A stretch of 64,000 bases of DNA from positions 15,844 through 79,843 of the IMG/VR virus record IMGVR_UViG_3300008108_004834, one strand, 5' to 3'. The notes under the pieces are model-generated. The model worked only from the letters and a program-made list of their open reading frames with translations, was not told the origin of the DNA and ran no database searches. Position 1 is the stretch's first letter; the number at the start of each line of letters is the position of its first letter. This DNA comes from a virus. Of the stretch, positions 3,923 through 7,846 are shown piece after piece. Made by a program: the position numbers and the translations under genes.

Positions 3923-4213
3923 ATGACTTTTAACGTTACACTTCAAACTCCTGACGGCACCGAAACCACTATTCAGTGTGCCGATGACCAATATATTCTT
4001 GAGGCAGCAGAAGAAGCAGGTATTGATCTTCCTTATTCATGTAAGGCAGGCGCTTGTTCTTCCTGTGCTGGTAAGGTGATTTCCGGCGAAATTGACAATG
4101 AGGAACAATCATTCCTTGATGATGATCAAATGGCAGAAGGTTGGGCACTTCTTTGTGTTGCCTATCCTAAGTCCGATTGTGTAATTCTCACTGAGCAGGA
4201 GGAGAATCTATGA
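3923..4213 (+). CDS. petF: Plant-type [2Fe-2S] ferredoxin
   Basis: [15 protein letters not shown]...LLCVAYP. Confidence 0.97.
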
Positions 4214-4533
4214 AAGCACTTCTAGCATTTCTTGCTGTATTCTTTCTTGCTCTTCCAGCATGGGCAGTAGATGTTACAATGGGATCCAATGGCAATCTTG
4301 TCTTTGAACCCGCCGAAATCTCAATCTCTGCTGGTGATACTGTTCATTTTGTGAATGGTATGCTTCCTCCTCATAATGTAATTGTTGAGGATCATCCAGA
4401 ACTTTCTCACGATGCACTTCTTTTTATGCCCGGTGAGAGTTTTGATGTCACTTTTACCGAAGCAGGAGATTATACTTATTGGTGTGCTCCCCATAAAAGT
4501 GCTGGTATGATTGGACATGCTCATGTGGAGTGA
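4210..4533 (+). CDS. petE: Plastocyanin
   Basis: Signal peptide; type-1 Cu ligands in PHNV and [11 protein letters not shown]. Confidence 0.95.
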
Positions 4534-4962: not shown

Positions 4963-5078
4963 ACAAAATTTTTACTGAAAATGCTGAACTCTGGAACGGT
5001 CGCTTTGCAATGATTGGATTCATTGCTGCTGCTGGTTCCTATCTGATTACTGGTCAAGTAATTCCTGGCGTATTTTGA
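4959..5078 (+). CDS. hli: High-light inducible protein (39 aa); not in ORF track
   Basis: MNKIFTENAELWNGRFAMIGFIAAAGSYLITGQVIPGVF; AGGAG RBS upstream. Confidence 0.95.
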   Translation: MNKIFTENAELWNGRFAMIGFIAAAGSYLITGQVIPGVF

Positions 5079-5089
5079 TGGAGGTTACT

Positions 5090-5617
5090 ATGCGTAAAGA
5101 GGGATACGAAGTTCCACAGGTAGAATTTATTTTTCGTGAGTCTGGTGAGTTTGTAACTCGCAAATCTTCAGAACTATTTGATAACAAACGTGTAGTGATT
5201 TTCTCACTTCCTGGTGCATTCACTCCTACTTGTAGTGCTTATCAACTACCCGGATTTGAGGAAAACTATGGAGCATTTAGGGACTTGGGCATTGATGCTA
5301 TTTACTGCATTTCTGTTAATGACGCTTTTACGATGAATGCTTGGTCACAAGATCAGGACATTCGAAATGTAAAACTGATTCCTGATGGCAACGCTTACTT
5401 CACTCGCTCTATGGGTCAACTCGTTGCCAAGACCAATCTTGGTTTTGGTCAGCGTTCTTGGCGATATGCTGCTGTGGTAACTGATGGAATTATTGAAAGA
5501 CTTTTTGAGGAACCAGGAAAATGCGATAATGCAGATTCTGATCCTTATGAAGTTACAACTCCAGAAAATGTCTTGAATTATATTCGGACTTCTGTGTTAG
5601 AACTAGAAATTGTTTGA
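5090..5617 (+). CDS. Peroxiredoxin (Prx5/type II)
   Basis: LPGAFTPTCS, SVNDAF, PDGN, RSWRYA motifs; GGAGG RBS before ATG 5090. Confidence 0.93.
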   Translation: MRKEGYEVPQVEFIFRESGEFVTRKSSELFDNKRVVIFSLPGAFTPTCSAYQLPGFEENYGAFRDLGIDAIYCISVNDAFTMNAWSQDQDIRNVKLIPDGNAYFTRSMGQLVAKTNLGFGQRSWRYAAVVTDGIIERLFEEPGKCDNADSDPYEVTTPENVLNYIRTSVLELEIV

Positions 5618-5622
5618 ATGTG

Positions 5623-5647
5623 AGGAGGGTTAATACCCTCCTTTTTT
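5623..5647 (+). terminator. Rho-independent terminator, followed by late promoter AATAAATA
   Basis: AGGAGGG-TTAATA-CCCTCCT plus T-run. Confidence 0.8.
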
Positions 5648-5678
5648 AATAAATAGATTTACTGAATGAATAGGGACA

Positions 5679-6374
5679 ATGAAAGTAGATCTGCATAATT
5701 TCTTTAAGCATTATGATGAAAACAACCCAAATCATATTGCTTCAGTAGAAAAACTGGAAGAAGCACTTGCAAATAAGCAACCTGAATTACTTGAAGACAT
5801 TGCAGACTGGGTTATCACCTATAGAAAGAAACCTTCTGTTCCTGGAATTCTAAACGTTCCTTTCTACCCACAAACAGATAATTATAGGGATGCTCAACGA
5901 ACCTGTAATTCATCTGCTTGTGCTATGTGTCTAGAGTATTTTAAACCAGGCACTTTAAAAGGGGTAAAAGGAGATGATACCTACATTCAAAAGGTATTCT
6001 CAGTTGGTGATACAACAGATCATTCGGTTCAAACCAGTGTTCTCAATTCTTATGGGATTAAGTCTGGGTTTAAGTATAATCTTGGGTTTTCTGATCTTGA
6101 TCGTGAGCTTGCTGCTGGGAGACCCGTTGTTATCGGTATCTTGCATCGCGGTACTTTATCTGCTCCTACTGGTGGTCATATGCTCGTAGTGATTGGAAAG
6201 AAAGGTGATGATTATGTTGTTAATGACCCTTATGGATCTTTGAATGATGATTACACTGGCCCAGTGACAAATGGCAAAGGTGCTGTGTATAAGAGATCTG
6301 ATCTTGAGTATCGTTGGTTGGAACGCGCAAAAGATAAGACCGGTTGGGGCAGAATCTTTGATGCAAAAAAGTAG
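5679..6374 (+). CDS. Endolysin part 1: N-terminal helical domain plus C39-like cysteine peptidase
   Basis: Triad-like motifs 'YPQTD...TCNSSACAM', 'GGHMLVVIG', 'VNDPYG'. Ends GCA AAA AAG TAG. Confidence 0.8.
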   Translation: MKVDLHNFFKHYDENNPNHIASVEKLEEALANKQPELLEDIADWVITYRKKPSVPGILNVPFYPQTDNYRDAQRTCNSSACAMCLEYFKPGTLKGVKGDDTYIQKVFSVGDTTDHSVQTSVLNSYGIKSGFKYNLGFSDLDRELAAGRPVVIGILHRGTLSAPTGGHMLVVIGKKGDDYVVNDPYGSLNDDYTGPVTNGKGAVYKRSDLEYRWLERAKDKTGWGRIFDAKK

Positions 6375-6405
6375 AAAGTTCTATTCCGCAAGTAGGAATA
6401 GAACT
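6365..6405 (+). promoter_or_regulatory. Putative -1 programmed ribosomal frameshift signal
   Basis: In-frame heptamer A_AAA_AAG (6365-6371), 5-nt spacer, perfect 11-bp stem AGTTCTATTCC(6377-6387)/GGAATAGAACT(6395-6405) with a 7-nt loop. Confidence 0.8.
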
Positions 6406-6844
6406 CATCAAAAAATATGAACAATGTAAACTTGCAGTATATCCAGATCCCAAAACTAAGGGAAAACCATACACTGTTGGTTGGGGAAGTACTCGTAAGA
6501 AAGATGGAAGTCCCTTTAAATTGGGAGAAAGGATTACACGACAAGAAGCAGATGAGTTATTTGATTGGCAGATTCAAAATGAATTCCTTCCGTCACTTTC
6601 AAAAATTCCATATTGGGAGGAAATGAATGACAATCAAAGAGGGGCTTTACTTTGCTTTGCTTACAATCTTGGTGCAGATTTCTATGGTAGTCCTTACTTT
6701 ACGACACTTACAAGGGTCTTGAAAAATAAAGAGTGGAATAAGGTTCCTGATACACTTTGTCTTTATAGAGATCCCGGAACAGATGTAGAAGAGGGATTGC
6801 TAAGAAGAAGAAAGGAAGAAGGTGCTTTATGGGCCAAAAAATAA
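6371..6844 (+). CDS. Endolysin part 2: GH24 lysozyme domain in the -1 frame
   Basis: -1 frame reads VESSIPQVGIELIKKYEQCKLAVYPDPKTKGKPYTVGWGST...ALLCFAYNLG...GLLRRRKEE. The catalytic E/D/T lie upstream of the first possible start (TTG 6521). Confidence 0.85.
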   Translation, partial: VESSIPQVGIELIKKYEQCKLAVYPDPKTKGKPYTVGWGSTRKKDGSPFKLGERITRQEADELFDWQIQNEFLPSLSKIPYWEEMNDNQRGALLCFAYNLGADFYGSPYFTTLTRVLKNKEWNKVPDTLCLYRDPGTDVEEGLLRRRKEEGALWAKK

Positions 6845-6991
6845 CTTTCTTCCCTTTTTGCAGGGTCTTCTAATAAAACGAATAACCTCTGGTGGTTGCC
6901 TTTTTGGTTGAGGTCTTCTTTTGTCTAGCATAAGACCATCATTCGTCGTCAGTCTTAGTGTGATTATGATTAGAAGAATTACTTTCTTCAT
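6827..6991 (-). CDS. 54-aa basic hypothetical protein (MKKVILLIIITLRL...); not in ORF track
   Basis: Hand translation; hydrophobic N-terminus, basic Pro-rich tail. Confidence 0.45.
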   Translation of the reverse strand: MKKVILLIIITLRLTTNDGLMLDKRRPQPKRQPPEVIRFIRRPCKKGRKLFFGP

Positions 6992-7082
6992 TTGCTAGGA
7001 TTATGATTTTGTATAGAACAATTGCTACTCCTATGAGTCCAATTCCTAAAAGTATATTTACTGACCAAACTACTTCATTCAT
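6939..7082 (-). CDS. 47-aa single-TM hypothetical protein (MNEVVWSVNILLGIGLIGVAIVLYKIIILA...); not in ORF track
   Basis: Hand translation; overlaps the stop of 7075..7269. Confidence 0.55.
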   Translation of the reverse strand: MNEVVWSVNILLGIGLIGVAIVLYKIIILANEESNSSNHNHTKTDDE

Positions 7083-7510: not shown

Positions 7511-7846
7511 TCACATATACTTAACAGCAAATCCTTCCTGTAACATTCTTTCATTTATAGAAAAACAATCGTCTTTGGTATATAATTCTCCAAGCATTCT
7601 TCCATACTTATCTTCTTTAGTTGTCTTAATTGTAATTTCTTTATCTTTAAGTTCTCTTTCCAACCATTCCTTTGCCTTTAGACCTTTATCTTTTTCTTGA
7701 AGATCTAAGGTTCTTGTTTCTGGAGCATCAATTCCCTTAAGACGGATTCTTTGTTGAACGTAAATATAAAATCCGGCATCAATTACCACATCAATCGTAT
7801 CTCCATCCACGATTCTCACGATTTCTTTTACTTTGTAAGTATACAT
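7511..7846 (-). CDS. Thermonuclease (SNase-like)
   Basis: VDGDTIDV, RIRLKGIDAPE, DKYGRMLG motifs; late promoter on the minus strand at 7860-7866. Confidence 0.9.
   Translation of the reverse strand: MYTYKVKEIVRIVDGDTIDVVIDAGFYIYVQQRIRLKGIDAPETRTLDLQEKDKGLKAKEWLERELKDKEITIKTTKEDKYGRMLGELYTKDDCFSINERMLQEGFAVKYM

Follow-up and report, generated by a model that had tools for sequence, protein, structure and literature searches.

As set out in the review PMC5009743, A_AAA_AAG is the most shift-prone heptamer in Escherichia coli, and simple stem-loops suffice as stimulators of frameshifting. The same review describes a reversed form of dnaX in some bacteria, in which the long product is made by frameshifting and the stop codon lies directly after the site; it also describes the swapping of the dnaX product that requires the shift by one base change, a three-way junction as the stimulator of IS911, and a single tRNA-Lys in about half of bacteria. 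LysA of mycobacteriophage Ms6 yields two products by another route, through an internal in-frame start (PMC3111421). The present analysis concerns a cell-wall peptidase gene of a cyanophage and the lysozyme encoded behind it in the -1 frame, at positions 5679-6844 of the window, which is a stretch of 64,000 nucleotides (nt) of viral DNA from IMG/VR record IMGVR_UViG_3300008108_004834. The source is a lake-water T4-like cyanophage (Kyanoviridae), and its nearest GenBank phages have about 70% DNA identity. The 3' end of the peptidase gene is read here, from sequence comparison and with a probability of roughly 0.85, as a canonical -1 programmed ribosomal frameshift cassette. The lysozyme lacks a start codon in the window phage and in about a hundred distinct relatives, including S-PM2 and S-CAM7, and in these it is most likely made only by way of the -1 slip. 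Tail chaperones, capsid proteins and tail proteins are the phage functions known for programmed frameshifting; if the reading is true, cell-wall hydrolases join this short list. T4-like cyanophages kill a large share of aquatic picocyanobacteria, and the way in which they lyse their hosts is poorly understood.

Proposed shift site and predicted products

The zero-frame open reading frame (ORF) extends from 5679 to 6374 (+) and would give a short product of 231 amino acids (aa), consisting of an N-terminal helical domain of about 50 residues followed by a C39-like, papain-fold cysteine peptidase. Its 3' end reads GAT GCA AAA AAG TAG. The slippery heptamer A_AAA_AAG is at 6365-6371 (+), in the X_XXY_YYZ phase of the zero frame, and the zero-frame stop TAG (6372-6374, +) is immediately 3' of it. 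After a 5-nt spacer follows a putative 3' stimulatory hairpin (6377-6405, +) with 11 perfect pairs (stem 6377-6387/6395-6405) and a 7-nt loop. The -1 frame has a TGA at 6359-6361 and is open from 6362 to the TAA at 6842-6844, reading CKKVESSIPQVGIELIKKYEQC..., further given as CKKVESSIPQVGIELIKKYEQCKLAVYPDP...YTVGWGST. Its continuation past the site (6371-6844, +) comprises 157 codons and the TAA, and encodes a short linker and then a complete GH24 (P22/T4-type) lysozyme. Joining 5679-6371 to 6371-6844 yields a predicted long product of 388 aa. This anatomy had been described in an earlier reading of the window made from its letters alone (the original prediction), and all of its coordinates and both product lengths of 231 and 388 aa hold. 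The earliest ATG, GTG or TTG in the -1 frame is the TTG at 6521; it follows all of the catalytic codons of the lysozyme (Glu 6419-6421, Asp 6446-6448, Thr 6473-6475), which bears out the claim that the catalytic region precedes any such start.

In the proposed mechanism most ribosomes would read GCA AAA AAG and terminate at TAG, releasing the 231-aa protein of N-domain and peptidase. A fraction would pause at the 11-bp hairpin 5 nt downstream and slip back by one base on A_AAA_AAG, with tRNA-Lys in the P and A sites re-pairing with AAA AAA. These ribosomes would proceed with GTA GAA... into the start-less GH24 lysozyme and complete the 388-aa peptidase-lysozyme. The predicted trans-frame junction is ...FDAKK|VESSIPQVGIELIK, and the junction peptide in the window is ...IFDAKKVESSIPQVGIELIK. 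Slippage would occur on the ribosome, and the ratio of the two products would presumably be set by the cassette. In E. coli a lone tRNA-Lys(UUU) for AAA and AAG underlies the high efficiency of A_AAA_AAG; no tRNA genes were found within the window. Only one G-rich stretch precedes the heptamer, the TGGGG of the GWG codons; its last base is 15 nt away, and the conserved GGGG is dictated by the protein sequence. The heptamer was rejected as evidence when taken alone, as it is present at chance level in the AT-rich window (40 observed versus 43.6 expected). The combination of the signals and its conservation lies far beyond chance.

The lysozyme part matches the Pfam family Phage_lysozyme (PF00959) over positions 1-125 of the 125-position profile (E 2.6e-18; 67 bits against a cut-off of 22.3). 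From its residue 6 it aligns to residues 5-143 of the stand-alone P22 lysozyme 2anv (E 3e-10), and the alignment to 2anv and 9kbq extends across the entire domain and takes in the E...D...T(V/I)G(W/Y)G region. The full-length profile match, together with the presence of the catalytic Glu and of the Asp and Thr positions, identifies it as a GH24 lysozyme. Residues 58-185 of the zero-frame ORF match Pfam Peptidase_C39_2 (PF13529; E 1.4e-11; 45.6 bits against a cut-off of 24). The AF2 model of the peptidase is of moderate confidence (pLDDT 70.9); Foldseek ranks 3erv first (E 3.7e-5), a Bacillus anthracis protein described as a putative C39-like peptidase, and further papain-fold enzymes follow, including the pseudomurein endoisopeptidase PeiR. 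No significant match was obtained for the peptidase sequence among PDB sequences. Q65, C76, C81, H167 and D183 are invariant in 41 peptidase homologues. The profile match, the papain-like fold and the invariant Cys, His and Asp identify the protein as a C39-like cysteine peptidase, with C76 and C81 as candidates for the catalytic Cys. Both halves of the predicted long product are covered by a single 405-position profile, phrog_3617.

Conservation of the proposed cassette in related phages

Three scans of IMG/VR yielded 240 loci, which were sorted together with the GenBank loci and the window (L numbers denote individual loci). An in-phase heptamer, a stop 0-1 codon later and a lysozyme open in the -1 frame are found in 96 distinct junctions (163 loci). 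The heptamer is always codon-phased and is A_AAA_AAG in 95 of these 96, the other being A_AAA_AAA (L133). The codon before AAA AAG is GCA (48 junctions), GTA (42), ACA (4), ATA (1) or GAA (1); its amino acid varies between A, V, T, I and E, and its third base is constantly A. The zero-frame stop lies directly 3' of the site in 82 of the 96 and one codon later in the other 14. Only one distinct junction with an adjacent -1 lysozyme is without the heptamer, and there a GTG start overlaps the stop (GTGA). Junctions without a start-less lysozyme, that is, those with the peptidase alone or with an ATGA-coupled lysozyme bearing its own N-domain, number 34, and none carries the heptamer. In-frame fusions account for 16 distinct junctions, 10 of them without the heptamer. 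The site is conserved beyond the need of the protein, as seen in the wobble A, the retention of AAG and the absence of the heptamer where there is no start-less lysozyme. Alignment of homologous loci, proposed earlier as a check, shows a conserved AAAAAAG-stop and a covarying hairpin across the 96 distinct junctions.

Several named phages carry the arrangement. S-PM2 has GAT GCA AAA AAG TAA, a covarying stem and a start-less lysozyme in the -1 frame; the locus is present in two deposited genome records. S-CAM7 uses another slippery run, GTT TTT TTT (T_TTT_TTT), with a hairpin of its own and the lysozyme in the -1 frame. S-SRM01 keeps the heptamer, and an ATG overlaps the stop. The expectation that annotation would split or truncate the gene was borne out: only a 72-aa 'putative lysin' is annotated in S-PM2, the S-CAM7 lysozyme is annotated as a truncated 90-aa 'lysin', and the S-SRM01 gene is annotated as two 'endolysins'. 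The locus is a concrete candidate lysin whose lysozyme half is split or truncated in annotation, including that of the model phages S-PM2 and S-CAM7, and gene callers should merge the two ORFs.

Folding of the window hairpin gives a minimum free energy of -16.6 kcal/mol (z = -6.1), a stability that no shuffle out of 200 attained. A stem is present in every junction type; the stems begin 2-8 nt past the heptamer (median 5), and their uninterrupted helices are mostly 8-14 bp long. Their stability in 84 junctions has a median z of -4.1 against dinucleotide shuffles, with 88% below -2. The 5' arm occurs as 68 distinct strings, and at least five unrelated stem sequences are present, for example AGTTCTATTCC, ATCAACACCACA, GCCAACTAAC and CCCCACTA; in each type the 5' arm pairs with the codons just 5' of the LIK helix of the lysozyme. 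A covariance model was built from seven window-type sequences and 44 matches were aligned. In this alignment 97.5% of the cells are paired, and two-sided changes are present in 8 of the 11 pairs (61 cells). When the partner was slid by 1-3 columns, 27-48% were paired, and no shuffle was as good. Judging from the aligned sequences, the hairpin is maintained by selection.

Pairing of the loop was also considered. In the window, the loop bases GCAAGT (6388-6393) are complementary to ACTTGC (6430-6435, +), 24 nt further on, a pairing that none of 200 shuffles matched. No equivalent of GCAAGT/ACTTGC exists in the closest relatives of the window phage, and this possible pseudoknot is therefore treated as probably due to chance. 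Other subclades have loop-to-downstream pairing of 8-14 nt. In two of them the loop is able to pair with the codons for the catalytic F-E-G-C-H motif of the lysozyme, 11-18 nt past the stem: ATCCCTCAA with TTGAGGGAT in one subclade, and up to 14 nt, AAATGACATCCCTC with GAGGGATGTCATTT, in the other. The loci are L024, L094, L101, L112, L118, L124, L143, L150 and L212 (heptamer to +90 nt), together with L035:2193-2282, L042:2135-2224 and L045:2187-2276. The complementarity is lost where the Glu codon is GAA and not GAG (L021, L058, L079). To judge from these sequences, the pairing could form an H-type pseudoknot or a competing hairpin.

The constant codon phase of the heptamer, and the retention of AAG in 95 of 96 junctions though AAA would extend the run, point to slippage on the ribosome and count against slippage in transcription. 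In the latter, RNA polymerase would add an A within the A6 run (a T within the T8 run of S-CAM7), and the resulting fusion messenger RNA (mRNA) would need no ribosomal shift. Homopolymer runs are the substrate of such slippage, S-CAM7 has its T8, and the wobble A of the preceding codon lengthens the run; a covarying hairpin at a spacing of 2-8 nt is, however, the signature of a ribosomal stimulator. Six A are also short by comparison with known bacterial cases, since those of Thermus and Shigella use runs longer than six. Bacterial cases such as Thermus dnaX are listed in PMC5009743. Overall, a transcriptional origin of the fusion is improbable.

Start codons bear on a second alternative. No ATG, GTG or TTG lies between the shift site and the catalytic Glu in 47 of 84 junctions, and a further 32 have only incidental Leu or Val start-like codons, mostly within the stem or five codons before the Glu (LIK helix); an ATG precedes the catalytic Glu in the remaining 5, overlapping the stop in 3 of them. 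Synthesis of the lysozyme alone, by reinitiation after the TAG or from a non-canonical start (in the window ATT 6383, ATA 6398 or ATC 6407), would make the heptamer and hairpin incidental or a device for translational coupling. Picocyanobacterial genes often lack strong Shine-Dalgarno sites, and in some relatives an ATG or GTG does overlap the peptidase stop, both of which speak for independent initiation. The 47 junctions without a start, on the other hand, are hard to accommodate, and the candidate codons are inside or beside a stable stem. Independent initiation also leaves unexplained the phase of the heptamer, the conservation of its wobble position and the loss of the heptamer in L154, which has a GTG start, and the in-frame fusions and the conserved junction peptide indicate a fused protein. 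Initiation of this kind is very improbable as the source of the lysozyme.

It is less credible still that the hairpin is a transcription terminator of the minus strand or an RNA element unrelated to decoding. A terminator scan does score this stem as a minus-strand terminator whose T-run is the A-run read on the opposite strand, but that T-run begins 5 nt past the stem. The stem also lies within coding sequence, the closest end of any minus-strand ORF is over 400 nt away, and termination would account for none of the conservation. In relatives the stem tracks the heptamer irrespective of the neighbouring genes, and no Rfam family matches the hairpin region.

The length of the A6 run was verified on assembled contigs, not raw reads. 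Logan contigs from runs X6, X8 and X11, which belong to three independent studies, cover 6272-6599 with 0 differences and 0 gaps, and the same holds for X2, a run marked as a possible origin of this DNA. Contigs of co-occurring strains agree as far as the stop, beyond which they carry hairpins of other types. A run of seven A, giving a simple fused ORF, had been named as a result that would overturn the original prediction; the window has A6 in the contigs of all three studies, and A7 exists in a minority lineage. Within the frameshift clade, 3 distinct junctions are in-frame as against 96 frameshift junctions: A7 in L144/L189, A7 in L166/L185-187, and another indel in L190. All three retain the hairpin. 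The L166-type junction is present in contigs of several samples, and an assembly error is therefore unlikely there. That the gene is really a single fused ORF misread at the homopolymer, or a pseudogene broken not long ago, hardly deserves consideration, since A7 in-frame versions in a few contigs are outweighed by the identical A6 in three independent studies, by 96 distinct junctions with intact ORFs on both sides and by the occurrence of the S-PM2 locus in two genome records. The hairpin itself, earlier offered as an argument against such an error, is a weak one; it is the independent assemblies and the many relatives that exclude the error.

Programmed -1 frameshifting that joins the peptidase to the lysozyme, as first proposed for the window, is supported by the conserved signals, the covarying hairpin, the lack of start codons and the natural in-frame fusions. 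Several points tell against it or limit it. S-SRM01, L120, L133, L148 and L149 keep the heptamer though an ATG or GTG of the lysozyme itself overlaps the stop, and from these own-start relatives it appears that the lysozyme can probably work unfused. The covariance alignment was fitted to the structure and its sequences are related, so that the pair counts given above exaggerate independence. The role in lysis is drawn only from domain families (PHROG 'endolysin') and a possible late promoter, and no holin was recognised among the neighbouring ORFs examined next to the lysin gene.

Alternative gene designs and the N-terminal domain

Peptidase and lysozyme are combined in other ways in related phages. 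In ACG-2014f the peptidase and the lysozyme are fused in frame in a protein of 405 aa, and in-frame fusions also occur in marine relatives; most of the marine ones, L171-L184 among them, are without the heptamer. S-CREM1 has a reversed fusion, lysozyme-peptidase. DSL-LC03 and DSL-LC02 have separate genes, and their lysozyme bears its own copy of the N-terminal 55 or so residues of the peptidase. In separate lysozymes of the L064 type, the N-domain is followed by the linker K(V/I)EPT, which corresponds to KKVE(T/S)PT at the trans-frame junction of the frameshift loci. From the natural in-frame fusions and the shared junction peptide, the peptidase-lysozyme fusion is plausibly a real protein design. 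An AF2 model of the natural in-frame fusion L185, made from a 15-row alignment, reached a pLDDT of 56.8 and was not used.

Two of these designs contain the heptamer in other settings. The ACG-2014f group (L006:410-1627, L167-L170) is in-frame, yet has an in-phase GCA AAA AAG, then TCT GAG and a GGAGGG/CCCTCC hairpin; its -1 frame stops immediately (GTC TGA). By its sequence this would be a dnaX-like mirror design, in which a shift would yield the short form. The lysozymes of DSL-LC03 and DSL-LC02 (L004:1376-2044, L005:1334-2005) have an in-phase GGA AAA AAG TCT AGT at the border of the duplicated N-domain and an Ala/Pro linker. The -1 frame there reads GTC TAG, and a shift would free the N-domain alone. 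This in-phase A_AAA_AAG may be left over from a former frameshift, or it may put the frameshift device to a second use.

The N-terminal domain (residues 1-50, MKVDLHNFFKHYDE...WVITYR; 5679-5828, +) was delimited by alignment. It is a small helical domain for which no Pfam match was found. When two copies were modelled, an intertwined dimer was obtained with a score of 0.62, against 0.00 for the best control; contact agreement between runs is at least 94% and the pLDDT is at least 81. In calibration, the mark used was reached by 20 of 30 solved homomers and by 1 of 23 monomers. The model supports a predicted homodimer, through which the short and long forms could pair by their common N-terminal domain. 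This domain accompanies the peptidase and, in the phages with separate genes, the lysozyme, which makes a peptidase/lysozyme dimer of set proportion a plausible reason for the two forms. Both products would presumably act in peptidoglycan degradation at lysis.

A wider proposal is offered tentatively, as a possibility with less than even odds. The frameshift would set the stoichiometry of a two-enzyme cell-wall-degrading complex assembled through the dimer of the N-domain of about 50 residues. One and the same need would be met by a frameshift, by an in-frame fusion, by a reversed fusion or by separate genes with an N-domain; A6/A7 toggles would flip the product that requires the shift, and some lineages would tune the efficiency with a loop-to-downstream pseudoknot. 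The close relatives form a natural experiment in this respect, with the frameshift, an in-frame A7, an own start or separate genes with a duplicated domain, bearing on why a fixed ratio of the two forms would be selected.

Flanking features and comparison with described systems

A terminator-like hairpin with a T-run (5622-5643, +; 9 pairs, 5 of them G-C) closes the upstream peroxiredoxin unit, and the lysin gene therefore begins its own transcription unit. Between the two lies a possible late promoter, AATAAATA (5648-5655, +), 23 nt before the ATG. It agrees with the T4-type late promoter consensus TATAAATA at 7 of 8 positions; the assignment is presumptive. The ORF directly upstream (5075-5617, +) is peroxiredoxin-like, and in DSL-LC03 and DSL-LC02 a peroxiredoxin likewise adjoins the lysin genes. 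Further upstream, the ORF at 4210-4533 (+) is presumably plastocyanin-like, a name given from its sequence. Downstream, running towards the end of the lysozyme gene from the opposite strand, is a membrane-like ORF of 47 aa (6942-7082, -) that encodes a single hydrophobic helix. Its only matches are PHROGs 814 and 10723, both of unknown function, and it shows no similarity to the small ORF at this position behind the lysin of S-PM2; it could have a part in lysis or none at all. Just beyond, the ORF at 7514-7846 (-, 111 aa) encodes a staphylococcal-nuclease-like endonuclease (phrog_452, E 7e-38).

Full-text searches of the literature turned up no description of a frameshift in a cyanophage lysin, nor of one in an endolysin of any kind, and lysozymes and endolysins are not mentioned in the available part of PMC5009743. 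The PRFect paper names 'lysins' among frameshift-containing genes, citing Shearman 1994; according to PMC3111421, that work deals with overlapping genes for a lysin and a holin-like protein and not with a fusion made by recoding. As proposed here, the mechanism is textbook, its setting in an endolysin is unreported, and the comparative support from related sequences is unusually strong.

Among lysins, the Ms6 LysA type is similar to the window locus in that one lysin locus gives a long and a short protein with common sequence, which may act together. There a second start shares the reading frame and yields a C-terminal short form, whereas in the window the short form is N-terminal and the long form needs recoding. 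Enterococcal and clostridial lysins likewise give two products by an internal in-frame start. This route was rejected for the window, whose two parts occupy separate frames and whose short product is the N-terminal one. The in-frame cyanophage fusions (ACG-2014f, S-CREM1; phrog_3617, phrog_10051) have homologous domains of 58-70% identity and the same overall product as the predicted long form, encoded in one frame. OrfA/OrfAB of the IS3 family (IS911, IS150) and the tail-chaperone pair G/GT resemble the lysin in that a -1 shift, placed late in the first ORF, appends a second functional domain. They often use A_AAA_AAG with a 3' structure and set the ratio of short to long product; their proteins and roles differ from those of the lysin, and tail-chaperone sites are usually other heptamers. 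E. coli dnaX (tau/gamma) has the same A_AAA_AAG, a 3' stem-loop a few nt downstream and products with a common N-terminal part. The lysin differs from it in being a phage cell-wall hydrolase of a cyanobacterial host and, apparently, in having no clear 5' Shine-Dalgarno-like stimulator, which in E. coli dnaX is located about 10 nt 5' of the heptamer. With the reversed form of dnaX it shares a zero-frame stop directly after the site and a long product that needs the shift, and in its relatives the change from A6 to A7 swaps the product that requires the shift, as reviewed for dnaX.

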